The notes under the pieces were generated by a model. The model saw only the letters and a program-made list of their open reading frames with translations, had not been told where the DNA came from and ran no database searches. Below, in pieces: positions 2,715-37,690 of a stretch of DNA of 64,000 nt. Source of the DNA: an uncultured Spirochaetota bacterium (GTDB lineage Bacteria; Spirochaetota; Brevinematia; Brevinematales; JAOACQ01); assembly GCA_963783575.1 (NCBI GenBank), contig CAWAOD010000005.1, positions 1 to 64,000 on the forward strand. Reading direction: 5' to 3'. The translations under genes were made by a program, and so were the position numbers. The first letter of the stretch is position 1. Every line of letters starts with the position of its first letter.

Positions 2715-3974
2715 ATGTCTATAGAAAACTTAATTCAGGACTTTCTATCTTACTACAAAATACGGGGTTTTAAACATCAGGGCTTGATCGTCAAAAAGAA
2801 CGCCCTGCTTTTGTTTACGGCTTACCTCCGGGAAAAGCTGAATATTACAGAACCAGAAGGCTTGAGAAGCCTGACGAAAGAAAAGTTTGAAACTTTCGCC
2901 GATTATCTCAAAACCAAATTTCTTAGTAAAGACACAATCCGTACTTATGGCCAGGTCGCTAAATGTTTTCTAATGCGGAATGATCTTCTGCCGACTGGCA
3001 CGGGCTGGGGCAAGGCGAAGAAGGACTTACTCACCGGCCTGCCGGAGGAAATGATTTCCGTTTACTTTGAATACGTTGAAAAGCGGAAGAATGAAGGATA
3101 TCCCGCTTCAACAACCGGCAGGCTAGCGGAACATGCCCGGAACTTTTTGAAGTATCTTGTCTTTGAACGGAATGTTACAAGGTTTATTGACTTAAGAAAA
3201 GACGATGTAAAAGACTATGTTAAATACCTTGCCGATCAAACAGACATTGAAGGAAACCGCCTTTACGCTCCTTCTACCTTGCGGCAGAAAACCAACCTTG
3301 TCAAACCGTTCCTTATTTTTCTATCGAAGAAAGGGCTTTGCGGTGGGTTTTCCGGGCAGATGGGAAGCGTCAGGGCTGAAGACAAGGTTTCAAGAAATAT
3401 CCTGAACCGCAAGGAAGTTGTCAAGCTGTTTAACGTGAAGGCCGAAACCCCGCTTGAGTTTATGCTCAAAACAATTCAGGTAGTTTTGTATTCCTCCGGC
3501 GTGCGGATCGGAGAGCTTCTGGCTCTTAAGATTGAGGACATTAATTTTGAGGATCAGGAAGCCGTAATATTTGAGGCAAAGACGAACAATGAAAGGATTG
3601 TCCAGCTTGGCGATGTCGGCACGGCCTACCTGAAGCTTTTTATCGATAATGTCCGGCCTAATATCTGTCGTGGCTTTGTAGAAGGCACTCGTGCCTTTCC
3701 ATCGGCTTACGAAGGGAAAAACCCATGCAATGAAACCGTAAACCGGTATTTATCGAAAGCATGTACAAAAGCCGGTATCAAAAAGAAGATTACCTGTCAT
3801 TGCTTCCGGCATTCCTACGGAAGTCATTTACTTGAAAACGGGGCGGGAATCAAACAGGTTTCCGATCTGTTAGGCCATGAAAAGCTGGCCACAACGGAAA
3901 GATATACAAAGCTTTCACCGGAGCATCTCAGATTGACGCTTCTCAAGTATCATCCGAGGGAGTCATTAAAATGA
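2715..3974 (+). CDS. Tyrosine recombinase A (XerC/D-like, extended N-terminus)
   Basis: Catalytic motifs SSGVRIGEL, HCFRH, LLGH, TTERY; RBS aaggag upstream. Confidence 0.95.
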   Translation: MSIENLIQDFLSYYKIRGFKHQGLIVKKNALLLFTAYLREKLNITEPEGLRSLTKEKFETFADYLKTKFLSKDTIRTYGQVAKCFLMRNDLLPTGTGWGKAKKDLLTGLPEEMISVYFEYVEKRKNEGYPASTTGRLAEHARNFLKYLVFERNVTRFIDLRKDDVKDYVKYLADQTDIEGNRLYAPSTLRQKTNLVKPFLIFLSKKGLCGGFSGQMGSVRAEDKVSRNILNRKEVVKLFNVKAETPLEFMLKTIQVVLYSSGVRIGELLALKIEDINFEDQEAVIFEAKTNNERIVQLGDVGTAYLKLFIDNVRPNICRGFVEGTRAFPSAYEGKNPCNETVNRYLSKACTKAGIKKKITCHCFRHSYGSHLLENGAGIKQVSDLLGHEKLATTERYTKLSPEHLRLTLLKYHPRESLK

Positions 3975-4987
3975 ACGAACTCAAGATTGAAACCGTTAAA
4001 ACAATCGTTTCCGAAATCCTTACCAGCCGGAATTATTCGCCAGCCTCAATTGACAGTATGATCCGTATCCTGAAACGCTTCAATAATTATCTTGAGAGCT
4101 TGAAGAGGATGCATTCCATTGACTACCGGGACGTGAGGGAAAGCGATCTTTACGGATTTATGGAATATCTTGAGAAAGACTCTAAAAGAGGCATAAAAAA
4201 AGAAACTGTCCAAAACAACGCTTTGGCCATGAAGCGTCTTTTTCAAATACTTGAAAGAGAGGATAAAATACTTCAAAATCCATTCGGCGATGTTGAGATG
4301 AAAGGAAAGCGGCATAACATCCGGGATAAGGTGCTTTCCGAAAAAGAAATGAGGGACTTTATTGACGCTGTACCGGTCGATAATCCACTTGACTTCCGGA
4401 ACCGGACAATATTAGAACTTCTATACGGTACAGGCATAAGAGCAAGGGAACTCTGCAACCTTGAATTAACCGATATATTTCTGGATGAAAAAATGATTTT
4501 TATCCGAAACGGAAAAGGCAAGAAAGACAGAATCCTTCCGCTTGGAGAAACGCCGGTAAAATACCTTGCGGAATACATTAAAAAGATCAGGCCGAAATAC
4601 TCCCGGCTTCCCCGAAAGAAAGACCAGTCAAGGAAGTTGTTTCTGGGTAGTTTCGGGAAGTCTCTTTCAACCGGCGGACTCTCCGGGATTATCCGAAAGA
4701 TCAAGGAAGCCCAGGGAATTACAAAACCGGTTTACCCTCATATCATCCGTCATTCTTTCGCTACTCACCTTTTAAATGCCGGGGCGGATATCAGAGAAGT
4801 CCAGCTTCTTTTAGGGCATACAAGCCTTGACTCCACACAGATTTATTTGAACCTTTCGACTGCTTACTTGAAGGAAATTTACAGGAAATACCACCCGCTG
4901 GAAAACGAATTGTATTTTGATGTGTTATCGAGAGAAAGCCATATTTTTGAATGGAATAAATTTGATAAAAGCGGAGAAAAAAGGTAA
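3971..4987 (+). CDS. Tyrosine recombinase B (XerC/D-like)
   Basis: TGIRAREL, GKGKKDR, HIIRHSFATHLL, LLGH, TQIY; overlaps the stop of recombinase A. Confidence 0.95.
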   Translation: MNELKIETVKTIVSEILTSRNYSPASIDSMIRILKRFNNYLESLKRMHSIDYRDVRESDLYGFMEYLEKDSKRGIKKETVQNNALAMKRLFQILEREDKILQNPFGDVEMKGKRHNIRDKVLSEKEMRDFIDAVPVDNPLDFRNRTILELLYGTGIRARELCNLELTDIFLDEKMIFIRNGKGKKDRILPLGETPVKYLAEYIKKIRPKYSRLPRKKDQSRKLFLGSFGKSLSTGGLSGIIRKIKEAQGITKPVYPHIIRHSFATHLLNAGADIREVQLLLGHTSLDSTQIYLNLSTAYLKEIYRKYHPLENELYFDVLSRESHIFEWNKFDKSGEKR

Positions 4988-8100: not shown

Positions 8101-8147
8101 AGCAGGTAAAATACCTTATTTTGGAGGTGATTTTACCTGCTTTTTTT
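8101..8147 (+). terminator. Rho-independent terminator
   Basis: Stem agcaggtaaaat...attttacctgct followed by a T run. Confidence 0.6.
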
Positions 8148-8730
8148 GTTGTGTGAACCTCACGGCCACGATTATTATACCGCTAAATCCGGAATTATCA
8201 AGGTCAAGCTCCCGCTGGTCGTGATCGCTGATGCGATCAACCTTGACAATTCCGGCTTTCGCTGGTTATGTGGTTATGGCCGTTCGGGGAAAATGTTATA
8301 ATTATAATCCCCGAAACCCTAATGACAGCGACCGGCGAGGATGGGAAAAAACAAGGGCAAAATGGGAAAAATACTACCCGACAGGGTGGAGATTTTTTTC
8401 ATTTTGGCGAAGCGAACCCTTGAACGACAGCGGTTTTTTCCTGTCCGGAGCGGTAAAATACACGAGGGTTGAGGGGTTCAAGAACCGGATCCGGAAAAAG
8501 TTAGATCTAGAAATTTCGATTTTTGATAACCGGGATCCGGAGCCCCGGAAGGTGATATCTAAACGGCAATATTTACAGCCGGGGCGGTGGGAGGGTGTGG
8601 AGGGTGCGGAAAGCTTGATAAGATGCGCCAGCCCGGTTTTTCCGGTGTGCCGCCGCCGAACGTTTGGCATAGACCCTGATGATAAAGGAACCGGTGATAA
8701 TAAAGTTTTAAAGTTTAAGTTAATATGACA

Positions 8731-8890
8731 ACTTAACATAATTTAGCCTTATGGGCAGGCGTTTGAACTATTGAGCCGTTTAATTATCGTAAAAACTCGA
8801 TTCAAGACTTTCAGAAGTATTTTTAAATGACGGGTTTAAAAAAAGCGCGATTGAAACGCTTGCTTGACGATAAGGCAAATTATGTAAAAG
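8731..8890. other. Inverted pair of dif-like (Xer-type) sites
   Basis: acttaacataa-tttagcc-ttatgggcagg (8731-8759) and cttgacgataa-ggcaaa-ttatgtaaaag (8863-8890). Compare E. coli dif GGTGCGCATAA-TGTATA-TTATGTTAAAT. Confidence 0.75.
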
Positions 8891-9029
8891 GCGGCCGGAA
8901 AAACAGACTTGCCGCCGAATGCCTGGGCGTCATCTCCGTCTAGCTAGCCCAGGCGTGAGAAGGCAAGAGAAACGGCACGGGATATCTAAACGGCAATGAT
9001 TATAGGAATTGGGGGGATAACTCAGTTTA

Positions 9030-9440
9030 TTATTTTGTAATGACTTCAATTTCTTCAATTCTCTTAAAATCATCAACGTTAATGGTTACAAGCTTATTAA
9101 TTCCGCCAGCCAGCATAATGGAAACAATTTCAAAGTCATAAACCCGGTTACCTATTGGTTTATACTTTAATACAAGGTCGTTAAATATTTCTGTGCTGAA
9201 AGAATCCGGGTAAACGATTTGGAACCGTAAAGGAATCTTTTCCAATTCATTTTCAATGATCTCGTAAAGGCCAAGTTTGGACATAACACAGGTAAATTCA
9301 GTGATCGATTTACTGGCGAAGTAGATATATCCAGGATTATGTTCAATGATTTCTCTGGAGTATTCAAAAAATTCTGATTTTTTATTGAACGAGTAAACAA
9401 GGATATTGGTGTCAATAAAAAAATAGCTATCAATCTTCAT
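9030..9440 (-). CDS. PIN-domain (VapC-like) toxin
   Basis: FFIDTNILVY...VYDFEIVSIM...VTINVDDF. Start moved to ATG 9440, which overlaps the antitoxin stop. Confidence 0.85.
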   Translation of the reverse strand: MKIDSYFFIDTNILVYSFNKKSEFFEYSREIIEHNPGYIYFASKSITEFTCVMSKLGLYEIIENELEKIPLRFQIVYPDSFSTEIFNDLVLKYKPIGNRVYDFEIVSIMLAGGINKLVTINVDDFKRIEEIEVITK

Positions 9441-9627
9441 GGGCAAAATCCCTGATGTTAATTTTGTCCAGGTCTTTGCTGAATTCATAGACGCCAAAGT
9501 CAGAAGTTTGCTTTTTATCCTTCTCAGTTACAATCCAGACTTTGATTTTAGTATTATCTTTGAGCGGAATCGGTTTATTTATTTCAATATGTCCTTTATG
9601 ATAGACACCATCGATTAATTGATGCAT
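9430..9627 (-). CDS. Putative antitoxin (AF2212/DUF104-like)
   Basis: IDGVYHKGHIEINKPIPL, 65 aa, coupled upstream of the PIN gene. Confidence 0.7.
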   Translation of the reverse strand: MHQLIDGVYHKGHIEINKPIPLKDNTKIKVWIVTEKDKKQTSDFGVYEFSKDLDKINIRDFAHED

Positions 9628-9721: not shown

Positions 9722-10072
9722 TTATTGGGTAACTATATGTTTAATCTGGTTTTTAACCAGAAAAGCATTGATCAGTTCTTTAATGACTTTCTTGTCGTTT
9801 TCCGGTAAGTTTTCCACAGCCTTAAAATCCCTTAAGAGTTCTTCATCACTGAAAGAAACTTTGACGGCGTTGTCGGCATCGTCGTTTAAAAGGTAATCAA
9901 TAGACACCTCAAAGACGGAAGCTAGTTTCTTTAATGTCTCTGTGGAAGGCACTTGTTGATTCCCTTCGTATTTACCGACATGAGAATAATGTACACCGAT
10001 AAGGTTGCCTAATTCAGTCTGACTTAGACTTTTCTTTTTTCTAAATTCTTTTATTTTTTCGCCTAAAGTCAT
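9722..10072 (-). CDS. XRE-family HTH repressor
   Basis: LGEKIKEFRKKKSLSQTELG...YE...PS...LASVFEVSIDYLL; divergent from the main operon. Confidence 0.9.
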   Translation of the reverse strand: MTLGEKIKEFRKKKSLSQTELGNLIGVHYSHVGKYEGNQQVPSTETLKKLASVFEVSIDYLLNDDADNAVKVSFSDEELLRDFKAVENLPENDKKVIKELINAFLVKNQIKHIVTQ

Positions 10073-10717: not shown

Positions 10718-11479
10718 ATGACAAAAACAATTGTTTTCAGTAACCAAAAAGGCGGAGTTGGCAAAACCACGACCACCAGAGAGTTAGGCATTTACCTTTC
10801 AGAAAAAAACTTTAGAGTCTTATTAATCGACTGCGACCCTCAAGCGAACCTTTCTAAAAGCCTTGTCGATATTCCGGGCTTTGGTTTATATGAAGCGTTG
10901 GCAGGTGGAGAGTATGAACCGGAAGATGTAAAGCTTAATTTGTCCCTATTATCCGGCGGGGTGAAGCTGGCCGGGCTGGAGAAATCTTTAATTGGAGAAG
11001 TTGACGCTTTTACAAGGCTCAAAGATTTATTGGAAGGTGAAATCTTCCAGACTTATGACTTTATTTTAATTGACAGTCCGCCATCCTTGAGTGTGCTAAC
11101 CGGTAACGCTTTAACCGCATCGAACTTTGTTGTTATTCCTATGAACCCTTCGCTTTATTCAATGCAAGGCACTAATGATTTAATGGCCACGGTATCAAAG
11201 ATCAGGAAAAACTTCAATCCGGGTTTGCAGCTCCTCGGGGTGATAATCAACGCTTATGAATCTAATCCGGTAATTACAAGACAGATCCATGGAGAGATCC
11301 GGGAAGCTTTCGGGGAAAAAGTCTTTAATACGTCAATTTCTAGATCTATTCGTATTGAAGAAGCTATCGCCTTGAAATCCGGCGTTATATCTCGTACCCG
11401 TGTCGATGGGCGGCCATCGAAGGCCGCTGAAGAGGTCAAGGCCATCGGTGAGGAAATGCTTTTAAGGCTGGGGGTGTAA
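10718..11479 (+). CDS. parA: ParA/Soj family ATPase
   Basis: NQKGGVGKTTT, LIDCDPQAN, ILIDSPPSL. Confidence 0.9.
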   Translation: MTKTIVFSNQKGGVGKTTTTRELGIYLSEKNFRVLLIDCDPQANLSKSLVDIPGFGLYEALAGGEYEPEDVKLNLSLLSGGVKLAGLEKSLIGEVDAFTRLKDLLEGEIFQTYDFILIDSPPSLSVLTGNALTASNFVVIPMNPSLYSMQGTNDLMATVSKIRKNFNPGLQLLGVIINAYESNPVITRQIHGEIREAFGEKVFNTSISRSIRIEEAIALKSGVISRTRVDGRPSKAAEEVKAIGEEMLLRLGV

Positions 11480-11480
11480 A

Positions 11481-14207
11481 ATGACCGGGATGCCTCCAAA
11501 ACGAGACCCGCTAAGAGGGCAAAAGACCCTGCGGGTCACAGATTTTCTTGAGGAGTTTGAAGTTGACGACATCAAACGGAAAGTCGATATTGTAGAATTG
11601 TTTGAAAGCTTCGGCGTAAAGCTTACAAAGTCCGGTAAAAGCTTCAAAGGTTTCTGTCCATGGCACAAAGACAGCAAAACTCCAAGCCTGTCTATTAGCC
11701 GGGAAAAGGGCTTATTTCACTGTTTCGGCTGTGATGAAGGCGGAACAGTTGTCGATGCCGTGATGAAATTCAAAAGCATTGATTTCAAAGAATCGTTAAA
11801 ATTCTTAAAAGAATGGCCCGGAAGTCCTTTAAAAGAGGTTCCTTTAACTGTCCGGAAGATGGAAGTCAAACCCGAAGAAAAACAAACATCTACAGAGAGC
11901 GGAAACATTCATAATCTTAATGCAGTAAAGAATTATTATCATAAAAGACTTTTCGACCATCCGGAAGCCCTTGAATATCTCAAGAAAAGAGGCTTAACAA
12001 ACACGGAACATTATGAACGCTTTCAGATCGGCTTTGCCGACGGGGGTTTAAACCTTGTCATTGGTGAAAAGCAAAAGCAGGCTTTAACAGATGCCGGAAT
12101 CTTAAACGAGAAAGGGCGGGAACATTTCCTGAACTGCCTTATTTTTCCAATCTTTAACGACAACAATCAAACCATCGGTTTTTATGGCCGTGATACTAAT
12201 GACGGCTCAGACTTCAAACACCGCTATTTAAAAGGGCCACACAGCGGCGTTTTTAATCGTAAAGCTAGTAAAGTGTATGATGAAATCATTTTAACGGAGT
12301 GTATTATTGATTGTCTAAGCCTTATTGAAACCGGCTTTGAGAATGTCCAGCCGATCTATGGAACAAACGGCTTTACAGAAGAACACTTACAAATTTTGAA
12401 AGCCGACAGGGTTAAAACGGTCATTCTGGCGCTGGATAATGACGAAGCCGGGACGCTTGCCAGTGAAAAGCTGAAAGAAAGCCTTATTAATGAGGGTTTC
12501 AAGGTCAAAATTGTTTCTCCTTTCGGCGGTAAAGACTGGAACGACGCCTTAAAGGCTGGCGCATTGAAAAAAGATGACCTTAAAGTCTTAATTGAACAAG
12601 CCGCTATCTTTGAAGCAGAGAAAGATATTGAAAGTGACGCGTCACACGGCCTGAAGGTTACTCAGGAAGGATTCGGCACCATATTTGCATTTGTTGATAT
12701 TACTTACAAGGTTTCGGGAGTTAAAGAAACATTTATTACCAGCCTGCGTGTAAATATCAAAGCCGAGAACGGAGACGACAGATATTTTGACAACCTTGAC
12801 CTGTACTCCGCCCGGTCAAGATCGAATTACAGTTTTCAAGTTTCCCGGATTTTCAGCATTGAACCGAAACGGATCGAAAAGGATTTGATCACAATTCTTG
12901 AATACTTTGAGGACGAACGCGAGCGGCGCAGCCGCCTTGAAAATGAGAAAGAATCGAAGCCGGAATTAACCGAAAAAGAACGGAAAGCCGGGCTTAATTT
13001 CCTGAAAAGTCCCGGTCTGTTTCAGGAGATCGTCAAAGACATGGAAACATTGGGTTATGTCGGAGAAGACTTAAACAAGCAATTGCTATACCTTTGCGCC
13101 AGTTCCCGGATACTTGACGACCCGATAAGCGTGTTGATTCTTTCTGAGTCGGCTTCAGGAAAGTCCATGCTGGTTGAGACGGTGAAGAAATTAATTCCTT
13201 CTGAAGATGTTGTCGCCGTTACCTCTCTTTCAGACCAGGCCTTGAACTACATCAAAGACTTAATGCATAAGTTTTTGATTCTCGGTGAAGCTGTTCATTC
13301 TGATGTCATCGAACACCAGATCAGGGAGATACTTTCAGGTAAAGAACTTTCAAGGCTTGTGACTGTGAAGGATGAGAAAACCGGAAAGATGGAATCAAAG
13401 ATTGTCAGAACCCCGGTGATCGTGGCCAGCGTCATGAGTTCGACGGGTTTCAACATAAATCCCGAAAACACATCAAGATGTTTTGTCATTAATACGGATG
13501 AATCGAGGGAACAGACCCGGAAAATCCATGAGATACAACGGCAGAAATATACATTATCCCGCCATTTTGAAAAAGCTTCAGTAATTCCCGAAATCATTAA
13601 AAAACATCAAGCCGCTCAAAGGTTACTGCGTAAGATGCTTGTCGTCAATACCTTCGGCGGTTTCCTGAACTTTCCAGACAATCTGATGAGAACACGCCGG
13701 GACAATGACCGCTTTCTTGACCTTATCGCCTGCGTTTGTTTTCTCCGGCAGTATCAAAAGCCTGTCAAATGGGAAGGGCTGACGGAATTTATCGAGTGCG
13801 ATATTGACGACTACCGGATAGCTTACAACATAATGATTAACGGCATACTGGCTTCCACAATGCTGGAAATGTCAAAGAGCGCCCTGGAGCTTTATGAGGC
13901 TTTAAGGGATATGGCCGTAAAATTATCAAAGAAAAGCAATCTGAAACCCAATGAAGTGAATTTTACACAAAGGGAAATCCGGGAAAATACCGGCTTTGGC
14001 CAGAGCTGGATAAAGCAAAACTTAAGGGTGCTGGTTGACTTTGAATATATTTCTATCCAGAGAGGCGGGGGAGAAAGGACGAAAGGCTTTTACCGTATAA
14101 GGGAGGATGAAGAAATCAGGAAACTTAACCTTTCAATGATCCCGACGCCGGAAGAAATACAGGAAAAGATAAAAAATACAGATTCTAAAACTGGGCAAAC
14201 TGGGTAA
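11481..14207 (+). CDS. DnaG-like primase (CHC2 zinc finger + TOPRIM) fused to a P-loop ATPase/helicase-like domain and a probable C-terminal winged helix
   Basis: CPWH...CFGC, GFYGR, LTECIID, LALDNDEAG, KDWND; SESASGKS Walker A-like motif; SRCF; C-terminal FTQREIRE. Confidence 0.88.
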   Translation: MTGMPPKRDPLRGQKTLRVTDFLEEFEVDDIKRKVDIVELFESFGVKLTKSGKSFKGFCPWHKDSKTPSLSISREKGLFHCFGCDEGGTVVDAVMKFKSIDFKESLKFLKEWPGSPLKEVPLTVRKMEVKPEEKQTSTESGNIHNLNAVKNYYHKRLFDHPEALEYLKKRGLTNTEHYERFQIGFADGGLNLVIGEKQKQALTDAGILNEKGREHFLNCLIFPIFNDNNQTIGFYGRDTNDGSDFKHRYLKGPHSGVFNRKASKVYDEIILTECIIDCLSLIETGFENVQPIYGTNGFTEEHLQILKADRVKTVILALDNDEAGTLASEKLKESLINEGFKVKIVSPFGGKDWNDALKAGALKKDDLKVLIEQAAIFEAEKDIESDASHGLKVTQEGFGTIFAFVDITYKVSGVKETFITSLRVNIKAENGDDRYFDNLDLYSARSRSNYSFQVSRIFSIEPKRIEKDLITILEYFEDERERRSRLENEKESKPELTEKERKAGLNFLKSPGLFQEIVKDMETLGYVGEDLNKQLLYLCASSRILDDPISVLILSESASGKSMLVETVKKLIPSEDVVAVTSLSDQALNYIKDLMHKFLILGEAVHSDVIEHQIREILSGKELSRLVTVKDEKTGKMESKIVRTPVIVASVMSSTGFNINPENTSRCFVINTDESREQTRKIHEIQRQKYTLSRHFEKASVIPEIIKKHQAAQRLLRKMLVVNTFGGFLNFPDNLMRTRRDNDRFLDLIACVCFLRQYQKPVKWEGLTEFIECDIDDYRIAYNIMINGILASTMLEMSKSALELYEALRDMAVKLSKKSNLKPNEVNFTQREIRENTGFGQSWIKQNLRVLVDFEYISIQRGGGERTKGFYRIREDEEIRKLNLSMIPTPEEIQEKIKNTDSKTGQTG

Positions 14208-14321: not shown

Positions 14322-15581
14322 ATGTCTATAGAAAACTTAATTCAGGACTTTCTATCTTACTACAAAATACGGGGTTTTAAACATCAGGGCTTGATCGTCA
14401 AAAAGAACGCCCTGCTTTTGTTTACGGCTTACCTCCGGGAAAAGCTGAATATTACAGAACCAGAAGGCTTGAGAAGCCTGACGAAAGAAAAGTTTGAAAC
14501 TTTCGCCGATTATCTCAAAACCAAATTTCTTAGTAAAGACACAATCCGTACTTATGGCCAGGTCGCTAAATGTTTTCTAATGCGGAATGATCTTCTGCCG
14601 ACTGGCACGGGCTGGGGCAAGGCGAAGAAGGACTTACTCACCGGCCTGCCGGAGGAAATGATTTCCGTTTACTTTGAATACGTTGAAAAGCGGAAGAATG
14701 AAGGATATCCCGCTTCAACAACCGGCAGGCTAGCGGAACATGCCCGGAACTTTTTGAAGTATCTTGTCTTTGAACGGAATGTTACAAGGTTTATTGACTT
14801 AAGAAAAGACGATGTAAAAGACTATGTTAAATACCTTGCCGATCAAACAGACATTGAAGGAAACCGCCTTTACGCTCCTTCTACCTTGCGGCAGAAAACC
14901 AACCTTGTCAAACCGTTCCTTATTTTTCTATCGAAGAAAGGGCTTTGCGGTGGGTTTTCCGGGCAGATGGGAAGCGTCAGGGCTGAAGACAAGGTTTCAA
15001 GAAATATCCTGAACCGCAAGGAAGTTGTCAAGCTGTTTAACGTGAAGGCCGAAACCCCGCTTGAGTTTATGCTCAAAACAATTCAGGTAGTTTTGTATTC
15101 CTCCGGCGTGCGGATCGGAGAGCTTTTGGCTCTTAAGATTGAGGACATTAATTTTGAGGATCAGGAAGCCGTAATATTTGAGGCAAAGACGAACAATGAA
15201 AGGATTGTCCAGCTTGGCGATGTCGGCACGGCCTACCTGAAGCTTTTTATCGATAATGTCCGGCCTAATATCTGTCGTGGCTTTGTAGAAGGCACTCGTG
15301 CCTTTCCATCGGCTTACGAAGGGAAAAACCCATGCAATGAAACCGTAAACCGGTATTTATCGAAAGCATGTACAAAAGCCGGTATCAAAAAGAAGATTAC
15401 CTGTCATTGCTTCCGGCATTCCTACGGAAGTCATTTACTTGAAAACGGGGCGGGAATCAAACAGGTTTCCGATCTGTTAGGCCATGAAAAGCTGGCCACA
15501 ACGGAAAGATATACAAAGCTTTCACCGGAGCATCTCAGATTGACGCTTCTCAAGTATCATCCGAGGGAGTCATTAAAATGA
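14322..15581 (+). CDS. Tyrosine recombinase A, copy 2
   Basis: Protein matches 2715-3974. Confidence 0.95.
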   Translation: MSIENLIQDFLSYYKIRGFKHQGLIVKKNALLLFTAYLREKLNITEPEGLRSLTKEKFETFADYLKTKFLSKDTIRTYGQVAKCFLMRNDLLPTGTGWGKAKKDLLTGLPEEMISVYFEYVEKRKNEGYPASTTGRLAEHARNFLKYLVFERNVTRFIDLRKDDVKDYVKYLADQTDIEGNRLYAPSTLRQKTNLVKPFLIFLSKKGLCGGFSGQMGSVRAEDKVSRNILNRKEVVKLFNVKAETPLEFMLKTIQVVLYSSGVRIGELLALKIEDINFEDQEAVIFEAKTNNERIVQLGDVGTAYLKLFIDNVRPNICRGFVEGTRAFPSAYEGKNPCNETVNRYLSKACTKAGIKKKITCHCFRHSYGSHLLENGAGIKQVSDLLGHEKLATTERYTKLSPEHLRLTLLKYHPRESLK

Positions 15582-16594
15582 ACGAACTCAAGATTGAAAC
15601 CGTTAAAACAATCGTTTCCGAAATCCTTACCAGCCGGAATTATTCGCCAGCCTCAATTGACAGTATGATCCGTATCCTGAAACGCTTCAATAATTATCTT
15701 GAGAGCTTGAAGAGGATGCATTCCATTGACTACCGGGACGTGAGGGAAAGCGATCTTTACGGATTTATGGAATATCTTGAGAAAGACTCTAAAAGAGGCA
15801 TAAAAAAAGAAACTGTCCAAAACAACGCTTTGGCCATGAAGCGTCTTTTTCAAATACTTGAAAGAGAGGATAAAATACTTCAAAATCCATTCGGCGATGT
15901 TGAGATGAAAGGAAAGCGGCATAACATCCGGGATAAGGTGCTTTCCGAAAAAGAAATGAGGGACTTTATTGACGCTGTACCGGTCGATAATCCACTTGAC
16001 TTCCGGAACCGGACAATATTAGAACTTCTATACGGTACAGGCATAAGAGCAAGGGAACTCTGCAACCTTGAATTAACCGATATATTTCTGGATGAAAAAA
16101 TGATTTTTATCCGAAACGGAAAAGGCAAGAAAGACAGAATCCTTCCGCTTGGAGAAACGCCGGTAAAATACCTTGCGGAATACATTAAAAAGATCAGGCC
16201 GAAATACTCCCGGCTTCCCCGAAAGAAAGACCAGTCAAGGAAGTTGTTTCTGGGTAGTTTCGGGAAGTCTCTTTCAACCGGCGGACTCTCCGGGATTATC
16301 CGAAAGATCAAGGAAGCCCAGGGAATTACAAAACCGGTTTACCCTCATATCATCCGTCATTCTTTCGCTACTCACCTTTTAAATGCCGGGGCGGATATCA
16401 GAGAAGTCCAGCTTCTTTTAGGGCATACAAGCCTTGACTCCACACAGATTTATTTGAACCTTTCGACTGCTTACTTGAAGGAAATTTACAGGAAATACCA
16501 CCCGCTGGAAAACGAATTGTATTTTGATGTGTTATCGAGAGAAAGCCATATTTTTGAATGGAATAAATTTGATAAAAGCGGAGAAAAAAGGTAA
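15578..16594 (+). CDS. Tyrosine recombinase B, copy 2
   Basis: Protein matches 3971-4987. Confidence 0.95.
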   Translation: MNELKIETVKTIVSEILTSRNYSPASIDSMIRILKRFNNYLESLKRMHSIDYRDVRESDLYGFMEYLEKDSKRGIKKETVQNNALAMKRLFQILEREDKILQNPFGDVEMKGKRHNIRDKVLSEKEMRDFIDAVPVDNPLDFRNRTILELLYGTGIRARELCNLELTDIFLDEKMIFIRNGKGKKDRILPLGETPVKYLAEYIKKIRPKYSRLPRKKDQSRKLFLGSFGKSLSTGGLSGIIRKIKEAQGITKPVYPHIIRHSFATHLLNAGADIREVQLLLGHTSLDSTQIYLNLSTAYLKEIYRKYHPLENELYFDVLSRESHIFEWNKFDKSGEKR

Positions 16595-18995: not shown

Positions 18996-19204
18996 TTATT
19001 AATAAAGCCCTGCTGGAGAAGAACTGGCTGGGCTTTTTTAGTTCTGGCGGGGAATCTGCGGCGAAGGCGAAGGTCTGAGGCTGGAGAAAGCAAAATCGTC
19101 TTTCGTCGGGGACGGATGGAAAACTCCGGCGCGCTTCCGGCTGTCAGCACTGCCTGCGTTATCCATCCGTCCCGCTCCTCAAGCCGCCTGTCGAAACCCT
19201 GCGC

Positions 19205-19349
19205 TCATTACATAATTTGCCTTATCGTCAAGCTGGCGGGCGAAATCCTCCGCTCCCTACAGGAAAAGCCGCCGTCCTAACGGCTTTTTCTTCCGGTCGC
19301 TCCGTCAGAAGTGTAACCAGCCAGCCGATAAGGCGAAATTATGTAAAGT
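19205..19349. other. Inverted pair of dif-like sites, opposite orientation to 8731-8890
   Basis: tcattacataa-tttgcc-ttatcgtcaag (19205-19232) and ccagccgataa-ggcgaaa-ttatgtaaagt (19321-19349). Confidence 0.75.
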
Positions 19350-19480
19350 AGCCCCAATTCTAAAAACTTCAATCTTTATCTTTACCGGTTCTTTTATTTG
19401 TAGGTACTGGGTCTAACGCTCAGGGTTTCGACAGGGCTGACGCCGTCATCAAGCTTTGTCGCAGGCCCCAACCCGCCCGT

Positions 19481-21496
<2,016 letters not shown>

Positions 21497-21840
21497 GCGC
21501 CGGCGAAAGTTTAGGAATTCTGCAAAGTGCCGTTCGGCTCCCCGGATTGGAACGATGGAAACGGCAACCAGCCAGGACAATTATACCATTCAGAAATGAT
21601 TTATCAAGGGTAAAGTCGCTGACTCGCTCCCGGATTCTGCGGAATCCGCCCTTGACAAATCATTTCTTCACTGGTTTTGCGGTTAGGCTGGTTGGGTAAA
21701 ATATTGATGGCAAAGCCCCCAGTAATGACCGCCACGAGTGAGGAAGGAAAAAGTCAAGGGCATGCGCCGCAGCGCAGGCGACCGATAGGGAGTTTACCCT
21801 TTACTTTTTCCTGACGAACCGTATAATTCCGTTGCTGGGG

Positions 21841-23814
21841 GTACGCCAAGATAAACTGGATTGCGCTAATGAGCTGAAAGGTGCTCATCTCATTAATTGC
21901 CTGTTCGGTGAGGAGCGAACCAAGCGTCCGTGGAGGCAACGAAGCGGGCGGAGTCTTGGGGAGCGAAGATGCGAGCCGTAACGCAAGTGAATCCGATAGC
22001 CTCGTTATGGGAATTAAGAAAAGCGGGAGTGGTCAAGTTGTCCCCAAAATCGAAACCTGATACCTGCGGTGAAGAAACTGGCATAAGCAGCCGCAGGACT
22101 CTCCGGGGTAAGGAAGGAACGGCGCGTATTGAAAGTGCGGTCGCGGAACTTGGGAGACCCTGCCTGTTCCGGAAACGGTATCTGCTGACAATCCGAAGAA
22201 GAAAGGAAGCGGAAAAGACAGGCAGGGAGTCGGATTAATCCATAGTAGCGAGGAAGCGGGTAACGACCGTGGAGCGAAGGGATTAACGTTGACACGTAGC
22301 GGCAAGGGACACATAGTCCAAACTCAGAATTGGAGGAAACTGTGGAAAAGGAACTATGCCGTATAGCGGAAATTGCAAAGGAGGACAAAAAGCTAAAGTT
22401 TATCAGTCTTGCACACTTATTAAACATGGACAATCTGAGAGAGTGTTTCTATCTGCTTAAGAAAGGCAGAGCGCCCGGTATCGATGAAGTAAACCTGGAA
22501 GACTACGAGGCAGACCTTGAAGGCAACCTGACCCGGCTGGTGGAAAGGCTTAAGAAGAAGTCATACAAGCCGAAACCGGTGAGAAGAGTGTATATTCCCA
22601 AGGCAAGTGGAAAGCTAAGACCGTTAGGGATACCAGCGGTAGAAGACAAGATCGTACAAATGGGAATTACGAGAATACTGGAAGCGATCTATGAGCAGGA
22701 CTTTCTGGAATGCTCATATGGGTTCAGGCCGAAAAGGGGATGCCATGATGCGTTGAAAGCATTAAGTGTAATGATAACCGAGAAACCTGTGGAATATATC
22801 ATCGATGCGGACATAAGAGGGTTCTTCGACAATGTTGACCACGAGATTATGATCAAATTGCTCAGGTACAGAATATCTGACAGTACATTGCTCCAACTGA
22901 TTGAAAGGTTTCTAAAAGGCGGGGTAATGGAAGAAGGCAAATATCAGGAAACAGAAAGAGGAACACCTCAAGGAGGAATATTGTCGCCGGTTCTGGCAAA
23001 CATCTACCTGCATTACGCTCTGGACAAATGGGTGGAATATGGCAAAGCGGCAGTGAAAGGGTATCTTGGACTGGTAAGATATGCGGATGATTTCATCATC
23101 TGCACAAGGTTCAAGAAAACGGCCCAGAAAACGCTAAAAGCTCTGAAAACAAGGCTTGGCATATTCAAGCTAGAGTTGGCGAAAGAGAAAACCAGACTGA
23201 TAGAATTCGGGAAGCTTGCTGAAAAACGGGCAAAAGAGAAAGGGATAAGAACGGAAACATTCAACTTTCTGGGATTTACCCATTACTGCTCGAAAAGCAA
23301 GCGCAAAAGGTTCAAGGTAGGGCGTATAACCGAAGGGAAAAAGCTGAGACAAAAGCTTAAAGACCTGAGTGTCTGGCTCAAAAGGGAAGTCCAGAAAGAT
23401 ATACGAATATGGTGGCCAATACTTAAAAGCAAAATGCTGGGACACTACAGATATTACGGAGTAAGTGAGAATCTTGACGGAATGGCCAAATACTACTATG
23501 AAGTAAAAGGAATGGTCTTTAAATGGATGAACCATAGAAGCCAGCGTAAGAGCTTCAACTGGAAACAGTTCTACAACTATCTGAAAAAGTACAAACTACC
23601 GAGACCGAAAATCTACCATAGCTTTTACAAAACCTATATCCTTAGCAACGAAGTGAGTATCAATGAAGAGCCTATTGCGGGAAATCCGCACGATGGGTTC
23701 TGTGAGGGGGAAGGGTCAGGATGAAAGATATACGGACACTAAGGCACGGAAGGGGAAACCTGGAAACGGAACTAAGCCGGAATCTAACTATCAGGACAGA
23801 CTTCTCTACTCGAC
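21841..23814 (+). mobile_element. Group II intron 2 (no endonuclease domain; class E-like, tentative)
   Basis: 5' GTACG; domain V gagcctattgcgggaaatccgcacgatgggttc near 23668; 3' ...ctactcgac; putative EBS1 cccca (22042-22046) pairs with exon end tgggg. Confidence 0.85.
22330..23724 (+). CDS. ltrA: Group II intron reverse transcriptase/maturase
   Basis: [37 protein letters not shown]. Confidence 0.95.
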   Translation: MEETVEKELCRIAEIAKEDKKLKFISLAHLLNMDNLRECFYLLKKGRAPGIDEVNLEDYEADLEGNLTRLVERLKKKSYKPKPVRRVYIPKASGKLRPLGIPAVEDKIVQMGITRILEAIYEQDFLECSYGFRPKRGCHDALKALSVMITEKPVEYIIDADIRGFFDNVDHEIMIKLLRYRISDSTLLQLIERFLKGGVMEEGKYQETERGTPQGGILSPVLANIYLHYALDKWVEYGKAAVKGYLGLVRYADDFIICTRFKKTAQKTLKALKTRLGIFKLELAKEKTRLIEFGKLAEKRAKEKGIRTETFNFLGFTHYCSKSKRKRFKVGRITEGKKLRQKLKDLSVWLKREVQKDIRIWWPILKSKMLGHYRYYGVSENLDGMAKYYYEVKGMVFKWMNHRSQRKSFNWKQFYNYLKKYKLPRPKIYHSFYKTYILSNEVSINEEPIAGNPHDGFCEGEGSG

Positions 23815-23820
23815 GCGCGT

Positions 23821-24423
23821 TTAGTGCTTTGGAGTTGGGTTTAAATATTTTTTCATATTAATAGCTAAAGAACGTGGAGCATAAAAAATTAATCCTATCA
23901 TAAAGCCTGCGGAGATAATAATGATATCTTCTAAGACTTTAATATTTAAAAGCGGTAGATTTTTCTTCATGAAATCTAAATAAAGTGCTATATAACCAAG
24001 AAACATGGTGAAAACATAAAGGATAAGAGCAGCCCATTTAAAAATTTTGTCGAAAGTATTAATTTTGATTTCAAATCCATTTTCATTGAATTTAAAGAAC
24101 TTAATGGCTCTTTTTATTACTTTCCAATCAAATTCTCGTGGTAATCCACTCTTTTCAATTAATATGAATTGTTCTTGTTTTAAAGATATACCACAAATTT
24201 TAGTAATTAAATTCTTGGTGAAATAATTGTTTGTAATAGATTTTATTGTTTCATCAAGCTTAGAATTATTAATTTCATTTAATAGTTGTAAATCAATTTG
24301 TTTTCTCCCCGTGAAATTAAAATTCTTAAAAGCAGATTGGAAAAACGCCGTAATTATTACAAGAATGATTGGAAATATGAATTCCCGGACAACAGAAAAT
24401 ATACTTACAACTTCTTTTGTCAT
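23821..24423 (-). CDS. AT-rich membrane protein of unknown function (cargo)
   Basis: 200 aa with three hydrophobic segments; RBS aaggag on the minus strand. Confidence 0.7.
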   Translation of the reverse strand: MTKEVVSIFSVVREFIFPIILVIITAFFQSAFKNFNFTGRKQIDLQLLNEINNSKLDETIKSITNNYFTKNLITKICGISLKQEQFILIEKSGLPREFDWKVIKRAIKFFKFNENGFEIKINTFDKIFKWAALILYVFTMFLGYIALYLDFMKKNLPLLNIKVLEDIIIISAGFMIGLIFYAPRSLAINMKKYLNPTPKH

Positions 24424-24627
24424 TTTAATCTCCTTTTAAAAGTATCGTCTTATATTAAAAAAAGATTATTCCCTGGAGCCACGAAAGGAGATATCTGAAC
24501 GGCGGTAACTATCGGCGGGGCGGTGGGAGTGGCGGGAGGGTGCGGCAAAGCTTGAAAGATGCGCCAGCCGTAGCCCTGTTTTTCCGGTAGCCGGGTACGC
24601 CTCTTGCTTACTCCTCTTCTTTGGCGT

Positions 24628-24788
24628 ACTTTACATAACTTGACCTTATGGGCAGGCGTTTGCACTCTTGAGCCGTTTAAAGACTGTAAAAACTTAATAC
24701 AAAGCCTTTCAGAAGTATTTTTAAATGACGGGTTTGGAAAAAGCGTGATTAAGCTTATTGCTTGACCATAAGGTAAGTTATGTAAAAG
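24628..24788. other. Inverted pair of dif-like sites
   Basis: actttacataa-cttgacc-ttatgggcagg (24628-24656) and cttgaccataa-ggtaag-ttatgtaaaag (24761-24788). Confidence 0.75.
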
Positions 24789-24931
24789 GCGGACGGAAAA
24801 ACAGACTTGCCGCCGAATGCCTGGGCGTCATCTCCGTCTGGCTAGCCCAGGCGTGAGGGGGCAAGAGAGACGGCACGAGATATCTAAACGGCAATGATCA
24901 TCGGAAATTGAGGATTTTCGGGTGTTAATAT

Positions 24932-30245: not shown

Positions 30246-31505
30246 ATGACAATAGAAAACTTGGTTAAGGACTTTCTATCTTACTACAAAATCCGGGGTT
30301 TCAAACACCAGGGCTTGATTGTCAAGAAGAATGCCCTCATTGCCTTTACGGCCTTTATTCGAGAGAAATTGAGGATTAACGAACCGGAAGGTTTTAAAAG
30401 CCTGAGAAAAGCCGATCTGGAAAACTTTGCCGGTTATCTTCAAGCTAAATCCCTGAGCATTGATACCATCCGCACTTATATTCAGGTTTCCCGCTGTTTC
30501 TTGAAACATTGCGGGCTTGGTGTTGAACAAACCGGCGGCGGCAAGCCTCAGATTGACCTATACGCCGGGCTGCCGGAGGAACTGCGTTCTATTTGCCTTG
30601 AATACGTTGAAAAGCGGAAGAATGAAGGCTATCCCGCTTCCACAACCGGCAGGCTCGCCGAGCATGCCCGGAACTTTTTGAAGTATCTTGTCTTTGAACG
30701 GAATGTAAACAGCTTTTCCGATCTCCGCCGGGACGATGTAAAGGATTATGTTAAATATCTTGCCGATCAAACTGACGGTAAGGGCAACCGTCTTTACGCT
30801 CCGTCTACATTGAGGCAGAAAACCAACCTTGTCAAACCGTTCCTTATATTTCTTTCAAAGAAAGGCTTATGCGGCGGGTTCTCCGGGCAGATGGGAAACG
30901 TCAGAGCCGAAGACAAGGTTTCAAGAAATATTCTATCAAGGAAAGAGGTTGTCAAGCTGTTTAACGTCAAGGCTGAAACACCGCTTGAGTTTATGCTTAA
31001 AACAATTCAGGTTGTTTTGTATTCCTCCGGCGTGCGGATCGGCGAGTTACTGGCTTTGAAGATCGAAGACATAAATTTCGAGGATCAGGAAGCCGTCATT
31101 TTCGAGACCAAGACGAACAAAGAGAGAATCGTCCAGCTTGGAGATGTCGGAACTGCCTACCTGAAGCTTTTTATTGATAATATCCGGCCTTTGGTATGCC
31201 GGGGCTTTTTAGAAAACACTCGTGTTTTTCCATCGGCTTACGAAGGTAAAATCCCTTGCAATGAAACGGTGAACAGGTACTTATCGAAAGCATGTACAAA
31301 AGCCGGTATCAAAAAGAAAATCACCTGCCATTGTTTCCGGCATTCCTACGGCTCGCATTTATTAGAGAATGGAGCCGGAATCAAACAGGTTTCCGATCTG
31401 TTGGGCCATGAAAAGCTGGCGACAACGGAAAGATATACAAAACTATCGCCGGAGCACCTTAGATTGACGCTTCTCAAGTTTCATCCACGAGAGGCAAAAG
31501 CATGA
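30246..31505 (+). CDS. Tyrosine recombinase A, copy 3
   Basis: Same catalytic motifs; N-terminus diverged. Confidence 0.95.
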   Translation: MTIENLVKDFLSYYKIRGFKHQGLIVKKNALIAFTAFIREKLRINEPEGFKSLRKADLENFAGYLQAKSLSIDTIRTYIQVSRCFLKHCGLGVEQTGGGKPQIDLYAGLPEELRSICLEYVEKRKNEGYPASTTGRLAEHARNFLKYLVFERNVNSFSDLRRDDVKDYVKYLADQTDGKGNRLYAPSTLRQKTNLVKPFLIFLSKKGLCGGFSGQMGNVRAEDKVSRNILSRKEVVKLFNVKAETPLEFMLKTIQVVLYSSGVRIGELLALKIEDINFEDQEAVIFETKTNKERIVQLGDVGTAYLKLFIDNIRPLVCRGFLENTRVFPSAYEGKIPCNETVNRYLSKACTKAGIKKKITCHCFRHSYGSHLLENGAGIKQVSDLLGHEKLATTERYTKLSPEHLRLTLLKFHPREAKA

Positions 31506-32509
31506 ACGAACTCACTTTTGAAGCCGTCAAAACAATCGTTTCCGAAGTCCTCACCAGCCGGAACTATTCCCAAAGCTCTATACAAAGCCTTACCCGCATA
31601 CTGAAACGCTTCAACGATTATCTTGAAAGCAGAAAGATTCCTGATTACCGGGACGTGAGGGAAAGCGAACTTAACGGATTTATGGAATACCTTGAGAGAA
31701 GATCTAAGCGGGGCATTAAAAAAGAAAGCGTTCAAAAAGATGCTATGGCCATGAAACGGGTGTTTCAAATGCTTGAAAGAGAAGATAAAATCCTGCAGAA
31801 CCCTTTCGGCGATGTGGAAATGAAAGGAAAGCGGCATAACATACGGGACAAGGTACTTTCAGAAAAAGAAATGCGGGACTTTATCGATGCCGTACCGGTA
31901 GACAATCCGCTCGATTTCAGAAACCGGACGATCCTTGAAGTCCTTTACGGTACAGGCATAAGAGCAAGGGAACTCTGCAATCTGGAAGTAACAGACATTT
32001 TTCTTGACGAGAAAATGCTTTTTATCCGAAACGGCAAAGGTAAAAAGGATAGAATCCTTCCGCTCGGTGAAACGGCTTTAAAATATCTTGCGGAATATAT
32101 CAAGAAAATCAGGCCGAAAAAGGCAATACAGCCTATTAGAAAATATCGAACCGGTAAATTATTCCTCGGTAACTTTGGAAAGGCTCTATCAACCGGCGGC
32201 TTAAGCGGCATTATCCGCAAGATCAAGGATGCGCAGGGATTTACAAAAACTATTTACCCTCACATAATCCGCCATTCCTTCGCAACGCATCTGCTCAACG
32301 CCGGTGCGGATATCCGGGAAGTCCAGCTTCTTTTAGGGCATACAAGCCTTGATTCAACACAGATTTATTTGAACCTTTCAACGGCCTATTTAAAAGAAAT
32401 TTATCGGAAATATCATCCGTTAGAAAATGAATTGTATTTTGATGTATTATCAAGAGAAAGCTATATTTTTGAATGGAAATTATTTGATAAAAAGATGCCG
32501 GATGGTTAA
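31502..32509 (+). CDS. Tyrosine recombinase B, copy 3
   Basis: Same catalytic motifs. Confidence 0.95.
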   Translation: MNELTFEAVKTIVSEVLTSRNYSQSSIQSLTRILKRFNDYLESRKIPDYRDVRESELNGFMEYLERRSKRGIKKESVQKDAMAMKRVFQMLEREDKILQNPFGDVEMKGKRHNIRDKVLSEKEMRDFIDAVPVDNPLDFRNRTILEVLYGTGIRARELCNLEVTDIFLDEKMLFIRNGKGKKDRILPLGETALKYLAEYIKKIRPKKAIQPIRKYRTGKLFLGNFGKALSTGGLSGIIRKIKDAQGFTKTIYPHIIRHSFATHLLNAGADIREVQLLLGHTSLDSTQIYLNLSTAYLKEIYRKYHPLENELYFDVLSRESYIFEWKLFDKKMPDG

Positions 32510-35533: not shown

Positions 35534-35561
35534 CTTTAACATAATTGTTCTTATGGTCAGG
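35534..35561 (-). other. Single dif-like site
   Basis: Reverse complement cctgaccataa-gaacaa-ttatgttaaag; followed by ggcgaaatcctccgctccc as after the 19205-19232 site. Confidence 0.7.
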
Positions 35562-35773
35562 CCGGGGGGCGAAATCCTCCGCTCCCCAGCAGCATCTGAA
35601 GCGAATCTGAAGAAAAAGTCCAGGATTTTGGACTAATAAAAGAGACATAAAAAGGAATGGACAGAGAGGGAAATTAGGAATGTGGTTATTGGAATAAGGC
35701 GAATAAAAGAAAGGAAGAGGAATGGAAGGCAGCAAAAATATCCATATTGTCTTATTTAACTTTAATAATTTTC

Positions 35774-37027
35774 TTAATATTGGCATATAGGACAAGCGGC
35801 GAGACGATTTTCATGGATTCTTTGCAAACGGGCTTGTTCGAAACCGGATTGAATGGAAATAAAATCAGGTTTTTTACCAAAGTAAGCTTCGGCAGGAGTC
35901 TGGTATTTATGAGCATGGTGAGGCCGGACATGATTATATTCCTGGACTGCTGTTTCAAGATACCTTTCAAGTTCCTTAAGGTCATGAAATTTGGAACGCA
36001 AAAGCCAGGAATACTTGAGGGTTTTATTGACAGCTTCGATCATACTGTTTGAAAAATGAATATCTTTCAAAGCTATCAAATGTCTGATAGAGATTTTATC
36101 TTTAAGAAATTGTTTAATGAGGTCATTATCATTTTCAGTACCGCCATCCGTCAGAAATATGATATATGAATCAATATGTTCGGTAAAATTTCTGAAAATT
36201 TTATCATAGGATTCCTTCAGGTTGGAAAGAGCTATATCTGCAGATAGTGAAAGAGAAACTTTGTAAGAAATGATAAAACGTGAAAAATTATCAATGAGAA
36301 TATAGATGTAGGCTGTGAGTCCGTTAAGGAGTTTCAGGCAGGTAACATCGGCGTGGATGACCTCATTGGGAAAGGAAGCCCGGATTCCTTTTTCATAGCG
36401 GGGTTTTTTAATGATGAAGCGCTTAAACCCAAGAAGTTTTGAGTATTTATAGAAGGAATCGCGGCAGATAAAAAGCCTTTTTTTTCTGACAGATTCTGAA
36501 TGGATGGAATGAACAGACCACTTATGATATGCTGGATCAAATAAGATATTTTTCATTTCATAAAGTTCTCTTTGTGAAATCTGATTAGGCCAGACTTTTG
36601 GACATTTATGTATGGGCGAGATTAGGCACTTTGTTTTAAGAAGAAAGAATTTACAGGCTCTTTCAATGGTAAGTTTGAAACGGTTAACAAGGAAATAAAC
36701 GGCTTTTACGGTAATATCCTGAATTTTATCAAGATACCCGGCAGGTTTATGAATAAGCAGGTATTGTATTTTATTTTTAAAGGAATATACATGAACAATA
36801 ATCCTGGTCATTAATAGTAATGATTTTGAGGATGAGACGGTTTTAAAAAGGGGCATAAATTTGGATTCGAATTCCCTGTATTCTAGTCCAAAAAGAGAGG
36901 AAAGGTCGTAATTCATAAGATGATAATAGGATGATTTTGAAATATTATCGCGGATGGATTCATAATTTAAAAGGCCAAGCTGCAGAGCGAGTGTAAAACT
37001 ATGATCATATTTTCTTATGAAACGCAT
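35774..37027 (-). mobile_element. IS transposase, DDE/rve integrase core (IS3/IS481-like; element ends not resolved)
   Basis: PNEVIHADVT, IDNFSR, LTDGGTEN, NSMIEAVNKTLK, YNHVRPH...TPAE. Confidence 0.85.
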
Positions 37028-37568: not shown

Positions 37569-37690
37569 GCGCGGCGTCCGAAACGGCACACTTTCCAGAG
37601 CGGCCAGGGACGGCCGCGGGCCGGAGATCTGTCCGAAGCAGGATGCAAGTTTACGGAGGCCTGGAAAGTGTGCCGTTTCGGACGCCGCGC
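37569..37690. repeat. Perfect 30-bp inverted repeat with 62-nt loop
   Basis: gcgcggcgtccgaaacggcacactttccag (37569-37598) and its exact reverse complement (37661-37690). Confidence 0.85.

Follow-up and report, generated by a model that had tools for sequence, protein, structure and literature searches.

To our knowledge, folded single-stranded DNA is the substrate of a tyrosine recombinase in only two known natural systems, the integron attC sites, whose bottom strands are recombined in folded form by IntI, and the attP sites of the CTXφ type, and both have shaped the understanding of gene capture and toxin acquisition. The core motifs of attC, R'' and R', read RYYYAAC and GTTRRRY. In the kilobase-sized pdif modules of Acinetobacter plasmids, the host XerCD recombinases act on duplex sites that alternate in orientation and have 6-bp spacers throughout. 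For CTXφ of Vibrio cholerae, two inverted attP sites are described that lie 90 bp apart and have unequal central regions of 12 vs 5-7 bp (PMC4246890). In the same account, attP1 and attP2 fold on the phage plus strand into attP(+), XerC alone carries out the exchange with dif, and the product is resolved by replication (PMC4246890). [quoted passage not shown]

Here, we describe a locus of an uncultured Spirochaetota bacterium (GenBank assembly GCA_963783575.1), known from a draft genome of 4.9 Mb in 18 contigs with ~37% G+C. The window, that is the whole 64,000-nt stretch of DNA analysed, is the start of contig C5 (CAWAOD010000005.1, positions 1 to 64,000). Its first 35.6 kb contain three copies of an ~11-kb element that carries inverted pairs of dif-like sites and encodes two tyrosine recombinases, labelled RecA for the first and RecB for the second (RecA is not the host homologous-recombination protein). 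The element family is new, and a search of open-access papers and preprints found no description of this element or site type. We put at roughly one in two the probability that each pair is one attachment site of this integrative element, acting in folded form. The pairs may add a third natural example in which folded single-stranded DNA serves as the recombination substrate.

Inverted pairs of dif-like sites

Each site consists of a D arm (nnTTWACATAA), a spacer and a C arm (TTAYSGKCWRG), the spacer being of 7 nt in S7 sites and of 6 nt in S6 sites. The three inverted pairs that a sequence-only reading had picked out in the window are present, and each joins one S7 and one S6 whose spacers match bar one extra base. 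Pair 1 is an S7, a 103-nt loop and an S6; pair 3 has the same layout with a 104-nt loop; pair 2, with an S6, an 88-nt loop and an S7, reverses the architecture of pair 1. The flank pairings proposed at pairs 1 and 2, hereafter outer stems, were also found, and pair 3 has one too. The features of the three pairs, by position in the window and strand, are as follows.

8635-8645 (+), outer stem of pair 1, 5' arm ggtttttccgg, 85 nt upstream of S7; its partner when 8600-8925 is folded is 8895-8904
8730-8759 (+), S7 of pair 1: D arm AACTTAACATAA, spacer tttagcc, C arm TTATGGGCAGG
8760-8862 (+), loop of pair 1, 103 nt, conserved among left-end pairs and always in the same orientation
8863-8891 (-), S6 of pair 1: D arm CCTTTTACATAA, spacer tttgcc, C arm TTATCGTCAAG
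8895-8904 (+), outer stem of pair 1, 3' arm ccggaaaaac, adjoining S6
19187-19201 (+), outer stem of pair 2, arm cctgtcgaaaccctg, adjoining S6; pairs with 19421-19435
19204-19232 (+), S6 of pair 2, spacer tttgcc
19321-19350 (-), S7 of pair 2, spacer tttcgcc
19421-19435 (+), outer stem of pair 2, arm cagggtttcgacagg, 70 nt past S7
24576-24586 (+), outer stem of pair 3, 5' arm ctgtttttccg; pairs with 24794-24804
24627-24656 (+), S7 of pair 3, spacer cttgacc
24761-24789 (-), S6 of pair 3, spacer cttacc
24794-24804 (+), outer stem of pair 3, 3' arm cggaaaaacag
35534-35586 (+), lone S6-type site (CTTTAACATAA ttgttc TTATGGTCAGG) with ~25 nt resembling the start of the pair 2 loop; right end of the array

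Along the window, the sites alternate in orientation (+ - + - + - + for the seven sites at 8730, 8863, 19204, 19321, 24627, 24761 and 35534). The motif ACATAA-N6/7-TTAT occurs eight times in the window for 0.59 occurrences expected, a count reached by none of 100 shuffles. Six of these eight occurrences are the three pairs and the seventh is the lone site at 35534.

Fourteen further pairs were identified elsewhere, which brings the total to 17.

Contig C15 of this genome, six pairs
Sister genome G285, four pairs
Metagenome contig L025, one pair, RecA 44% identical
Elusimicrobiales genome (L040), one pair, RecA 38% identical
Another Spirochaetota genome (L060, in G175), one pair, RecA 36% identical
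Genome of a different genus of the host family (G216), one solitary pair, in a defence island

Pairs and recombinases occur together in four lineages, namely this genome with its sister genome, L025, L040 and L060.

Spacer complementarity and predicted folds

The 7/6 spacer asymmetry is found in 16 of the 17 pairs. The exception is the L060 pair, with equal 6-nt spacers (TACCGG), no bulge and a G·G mismatch that is kept. The extra base of the S7 spacer can be A, C, G or T, and lies at spacer position 3 or 4. Spacer complementarity in homologues, on whose loss the sequence-only reading was beforehand to be abandoned, is kept, with eight 6-nt cores across the 17 pairs (TTTGCC, CTTACC, GTCCGC, CGCAAC, CGCGAC, CATACC, TACCGG and TTTTTC). 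Counting wobbles, all six spacer positions pair in 14 of the 15 pairs scored and five of six in the remaining one; the L060 and G216 spacers, compared by eye, pair at 6/6 positions. As a control, 11 chance matches to the arm pattern in viral contigs, corresponding to 10 distinct sequences, were examined in the same way; nine of the 10 pair at 2-4 of the six positions, the exception being an AT-only match that pairs at 6/6.

Spacers match across the loop in all pairs, whereas they match across the element body in one of four elements and across the inter-element segment in none of four. Therefore, each site is partnered with the one that faces it across the loop. Loops range from 28 to 106 nt, the four shortest being of 28, 39, 40 and 44 nt. 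Given the general stiffness of DNA, loops of 28-44 nt are too short for synapsis between two protein-bound duplex sites.

Folding was computed in silico for 14 of the 17 pairs, and the covariation statistics cover 14 pairs over a stem of 30 base pairs. Both strands were folded, as the sequence-only reading had advised. In the predicted minimum-energy single-strand DNA folds, S7 pairs with S6 in register in 14/14 cases, with one base bulged in the S7-side spacer. The z-scores relative to dinucleotide shuffles (-2.6 to -7.8) say little alone because any inverted repeat folds. The strand running from S7 to S6 is predicted to be more stable than its complement in 12 of the 14 pairs. A purine-purine mismatch recurs in the C arm of 14/14 pairs, with position 7 unpaired in 12 of them and position 6 in the other two; position 10 is a G·T wobble in 12/14. 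Overall, the stems contain 21 G·T vs 6 A·C cells, and 49 purine-purine vs 10 pyrimidine-pyrimidine mismatches, so that the asymmetry favours one strand.

Paired cells represent 84.5% of the stem, vs 76.1% after shuffling and 31-44% in slid registers. Both sides change at 9 of the 30 stem pairs, and the covariation score is 0.219 vs 0.076, which 0/500 shuffles reach; these shuffle figures overstate the case because the sequences are kin. Searched against 1.11 Mb of DNA around 80 unrelated tyrosine recombinases, the covariance model gave a single weak match (19.7 bits).

Outer stems of 9-21 bp lie outside the recombinase arms. Their sequence varies by element end and by lineage while complementarity is kept. 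Within one element, served by the same recombinases, one end has the stem tttttccgg/ccggaaaaa and the other end has tcgaaaccctg/cagggtttcga. The stem is different again in L025 and in the G216 solitary pair, where 21 bp are perfectly paired. The idea that left- and right-end pairs are hybrids of circle-borne and target-borne pairs was rejected, as the outer stems are complementary only as arranged.

A stable and covarying structure could also be a transcribed RNA hairpin, for example a terminator, an antisense transcript or an RNA that regulates the leftward PIN and helix-turn-helix (HTH) genes of the element, and the loop of pair 2 does contain a terminator-like stem. However, no Rfam family was matched, the invariant parts are exactly the dif-type protein-binding arms, and pairs occur in both orientations relative to adjacent genes. 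We regard an RNA function as very improbable.

In a second alternative, S7 and S6 would be separate duplex sites that, like the pdif sites of Acinetobacter plasmids, delimit modules (loop, body and inter-element segment) and mediate inversion, co-integration or module exchange, their likeness being due to descent or to the overlap of a common partner. The alternating orientation of the sites along the array, the canonical 6-bp spacer of S6 and the 24-nt match, in inverted orientation, between the two S6 sites of pairs 1 and 2 that flank element copy 2 all agree with such a scheme, as does a related element that exists in G216 as a 6.7-kb inverted duplication. However, duplex sites do not account for the retention of the 7/6 difference, nor for spacers that match across the loop and rarely elsewhere. 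In addition, the shortest loops exclude synapsis within a pair, the outer stem covaries although it is outside the recombinase arms, and the mismatches show a bias towards one strand. Inverted loops and swapped C arms are absent from all pairs, and inversion within the pair was rejected on this ground. Hence, we consider separate duplex sites unlikely, and a folded attachment site fits several features of the pairs better.

The element, its recombinases and its relatives

The RecA and RecB genes are adjacent, with nothing between them, and both are present in every element copy. Alignment to XerD structures indicated that the catalytic R-K-HxxR-H/W-Y set is complete in both proteins, and the catalytic residues of RecA are invariant across 27 relatives. 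Neither protein reaches the XerC or XerD equivalog threshold; with the XerD model, RecB scores 235.4 bits and RecA 145.3, both below the cut-off of 329.6, vs 338.2 for the host XerD. The host's own XerD is encoded on contig C6 and a XerC-like gene is on C9.

As the sequence-only reading had called for, the host dif was located and compared. It is the 28-mer ATTTCCTATAA GATATA TTATGTTAAGT, found once per genome in 12 of 12 host-family genomes, with 0 occurrences in a reversed-pattern control. In the host it lies at C14:285666-285693 (G000, outside the window), near the cumulative GC-skew maximum of C14; it was located by motif and conservation, GC skew being too weak on most contigs to indicate the terminus. 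The D arm of S7 in pair 1 is identical to the host XerD arm at 11/11 positions, whereas C arms and spacers differ. Because of this difference between the two arms, the D arm may be read by RecB and the C arm by the more divergent RecA. The element arrays occupy C5 and C15, whereas the host dif is on C14. Therefore, the element is no IMEX (integrative mobile element exploiting Xer) sitting at dif.

The element is integrative and probably self-replicating. Its gene order is PIN and HTH genes (leftward), a small open reading frame (ORF), ParA, primase, RecA, RecB, then further PIN genes with DUF2442, and variable cargo including PIN toxins, an M23 peptidase and genes of no assigned function. Pfam and PHROGs searches found no Rep or morphogenesis genes in it. 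The main features of copy 2 and of the segment that follows are listed below.

9030-9497 (-), PIN-domain protein, left end of copy 2
9722-10072 (-), HTH regulator, left end of copy 2
10718-11479 (+), ParA-type ATPase
11481-14207 (+), DnaG-type primase, 908 aa, with an invariant GKS P-loop motif in its C-terminal half
14322-15581 (+), RecA, 419 aa, Xer-like catalytic domain with ~120 extra N-terminal residues; other copies at 2715-3974 and 30246-31505
15578-16594 (+), RecB, 338 aa, XerD-like; other copies at 3971-4987 and 31502-32509
19351-24626 (no strand), inter-element segment: inverted conserved blocks beside each S7, a palindromic middle, two group II introns and a 0.65-kb insert with a 200-aa ORF

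For the C-terminal 500 residues of the primase (12681-14207), neither Pfam nor the solved structures gave a match, and the sole hit was a PHROG of unknown function. Because the GKS P-loop motif is invariant there (7/7 relatives), this C-terminal half is probably a novel helicase or initiator domain.

The full array unit reads S7(+), loop, S6(-), body, S6(+), loop', S7(-), inter-element segment, so that most elements have two pairs in opposite orientation. Copy 1 is without a right-end pair, and copy 3 terminates at the lone S6-type site at 35534 with ~25 nt of loop'. Beyond this array end come AT-rich DNA and an IS3-family transposase gene (35774-37027, -), which may have truncated the last right-end pair. 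Further on, at 37567-37692, is a near-perfect inverted repeat with arms of ~34 nt that gave a spurious plant microRNA match on both strands. The arrays of C5 and C15 both start inside an element, and a single broken array was considered; it was rejected since their overlap is only 76.5% identical.

In the sister genome G285, the inter-element segment has no introns and measures ~680 nt. In the window, two group II introns with reverse-transcriptase ORFs occupy about 19479-21497 and 21841-23815, and Rfam domain V/VI is matched at 21344-21496 and 23666-23814. The first intron follows the motif ccgcccg. Intron-like 5' ends are found at the equivalent position beside pairs on C15 and in L040 (~523), and the group II intron seems to home to this element family. 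Its position was rejected as evidence of folding, the introns being at the sequence target ccgcccg, ~100 nt from S7, and not at the stem.

The palindromic middle of the inter-element segment is found at 21498-21840 and 8144-8360 in the window, at L039:9985-10250 and at L040:587-842. It is predicted to fold as a long hairpin (-51.3 kcal/mol, z -5.5), matched no Rfam family, and could be the element origin or a structured RNA. In the two pairs that flank the inter-element segment, the S7-to-S6 strand points away from it in the 5' to 3' direction, and the geometry of L040 fits. If the palindromic middle is assumed to be an origin served by the primase, both hairpins would therefore be on lagging-strand templates.

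This arrangement raises a third alternative, in which the hairpins are replication signals (single-strand initiation sites or origins) for the DnaG-type primase, placed on opposite strands around the origin, their dif-likeness being secondary. Two opposed hairpins recall the ssiA/ssiB layout of RSF1010, here flanking a conserved, strongly palindromic middle, and the element encodes both ParA and a primase with a P-loop half; under the assumed origin, with forks starting in the inter-element segment, the stable strand is indeed the lagging-strand template. Such a role could coexist with recombination. On the other hand, the arms are of dif type, with a D arm identical to that of the host XerD site, two Xer-like recombinases are always present, and the array terminates exactly at such a site. 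In addition, L025 and L060, each with only one pair, lack a recognisable palindromic middle, and a spacer of free sequence with kept complementarity is the signature of a crossover region. Replication signalling as the explanation of the pairs is, in our view, improbable.

The element is rare. The RecA family comprises ~47 proteins at E <1e-60 among 5.8 billion and three loci across 185,579 species genomes, and close RecA copies are found in two of 401 Spirochaetota genomes. Collections of plasmids, phages and viral contigs yielded no close relative of RecA, the best viral-contig match being 37% identical over the catalytic domain only and the best plasmid-database match <33% identical. A search of Elusimicrobiota (401 genomes) gave one more weak candidate, G411, whose contigs have no match to the covariance model. 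By synteny, no empty site was found for the right flank of the array or for the G216 solitary pair.

The solitary pair of G216 (L149:10103-10265, that is G216:C2:38103-38265) is well preserved and has the spacers tttcttc/tttttc and the perfect 21-bp outer stem. Its neighbours are restriction-modification (RM) genes, SIR2-HerA, a Phage_CRI-type Rep-like gene and other integrases, the element body being absent; this pair may be a relic or a landing site. The same genome holds, at G216:C4:1047537-1062473 (L151, L152), two diverged relatives (primase, RecA-like and RecB-like genes) in the 6.7-kb head-to-head inverted duplication, whose halves are 97% identical and surround a 1.5-kb centre rich in operator-like TGGCAYGGGTTT palindromes. 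No dif-like pair was found with these diverged elements. In the most distant element, that of G175, a third tyrosine recombinase gene is just outside the pair (L060:362-1216, 1294-1448). Separately, the end of a 14-kb viral contig (L047:10001-10139), AT-rich and with several clustered dif-like palindromic sites, matched the arm pattern by chance; this stretch may be the attachment region of a Xer-exploiting phage.

A possible folded attachment site and its place among known systems

The sequence-only reading had the element's own recombinases acting on a folded strand. The two adjacent Xer-like genes, with their catalytic set kept, do travel with the pairs. Folding in vivo, the assignment of proteins to arms, single-strand exchange and replicative resolution are steps that we infer, in the following order. 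The S7-to-S6 strand would become single-stranded, as a lagging-strand template or by cruciform extrusion, and S7 and S6 would then pair into one dif-like duplex. In this duplex, the D arms would make up an XerD-type arm of canonical form, to which the XerD-like RecB probably binds; the central region would consist of 6 bp and one bulged base; and the C arms, with the fixed purine-purine mismatch and the G·T wobble, would probably be bound by RecA. The outer stem would close the folded structure. RecA and RecB would bind the site in this folded form and swap a single strand pair with a partner site having the same spacer, after which replication would resolve the junction, as happens for CTXφ attP(+) x dif and for integron attC x attI. 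Junctions between tandem copies would regenerate pairs, and a lone half-pair would remain at the array end.

Several points weigh against a folded attachment site. With its canonical 11-6-11 layout, S6 could function as a duplex, and 7-bp spacers are normal for tyrosine recombinases. The compensatory spacer changes pointed out from the sequence alone are real but not discriminating by themselves, as two sites that each share an overlap with a common partner would also covary. The 17 pairs are kin and amount to about five to six independent lineages, and that of L060 lacks the bulge. Left- and right-end pairs are mutually inverted, which simple excision of the attC x attC type between them does not explain, and the spacer of the lone site at 35534, ttgttc, is not predicted by the strand-exchange model. 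No rolling-circle Rep or relaxase was found in the element with Pfam and PHROGs. Finally, four sequencing runs (≤0.16 of sampled words, short contigs) gave no joints at the sites and are uninformative on circles.

A broader and more tentative proposal, which we rate as possible yet doubtful, is that the pairs are a third natural class of structure-specific tyrosine-recombinase site. Such a site would be a hairpin derived from dif, which a XerC/XerD-like heterodimer encoded by the element would recognise as folded single-stranded DNA. Its variable 6-bp centre (eight variants) would set the target, and primase-driven replication would expose it on the lagging-strand templates flanking a palindromic origin. 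If true, the single-strand pathway arose more than once from Xer stock. This independent case would derive from dif-type sites yet have its own two-protein recombinase, carried on a replicon, and would provide a heterodimeric structure-specific system in which the target-defining spacer varies naturally. It would also make testable which features, such as the bulge and the mismatch, select the strand, and how replication exposes the site. Because of their variable cargo and their arrays of tens of kilobases, these elements matter for genome plasticity in these uncultured sediment bacteria.

Among known systems, pdif modules share with this locus dif-like 11-6-11 sites of alternating orientation that delimit stretches of DNA. 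In contrast, the intervals are short here (28-106 nt), one spacer per pair is of 7 nt (16/17), the partner of each site is across the short interval, and the recombinases are the element's own.

The likeness to integron attC, as judged from prediction and conservation, is that structure prevails over sequence, with imperfect inverted repeats, a variable loop and unpaired bases on one strand. In addition, the recombinases belong to the Xer/IntI branch of tyrosine recombinases, and group II introns occur beside the sites. However, the arms are of dif type, without R''/R' motifs. RecA and RecB reach 111.8 and 119.8 bits with the integron-integrase model TIGR02249, below its cut-off of 265. There are two recombinases instead of one, the unit is an 11-kb replicon and not a promoterless cassette, and the sites are not all in one orientation.

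Like SEs, the element is integrative and has two tyrosine recombinases (PMC9345347). SEs as described there are without a dif-like pair, primase or ParA (PMC9345347), whereas the order here is ParA, primase, RecA, RecB, with contiguous recombinase genes.

CTXφ attP(+), as described in PMC4246890, likewise has inverted dif-like 11-N-11 sites ~90 nt apart with unequal centres. Its two sites combine on a single strand to give one Xer-type site whose centre is imperfect, as is predicted here, and both elements form tandem arrays. To this extent the CTXφ-attP-like hairpin of the sequence-only reading holds, the inverted sites being predicted to fold in register. The element departs from CTXφ in that the recombinases are encoded by the element, whereas CTXφ uses host XerC/XerD, that the arrays are away from the host dif, and that a DnaG-type primase and ParA are present instead of filamentous-phage or rolling-circle genes. 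Moreover, the centre is almost fully paired (6 bp and a bulge), unlike the large bubble of CTXφ, an outer stem is present, and most elements carry two opposed pairs. Overall, the pairs resemble both CTXφ attP and integron attC and are a member of neither family.

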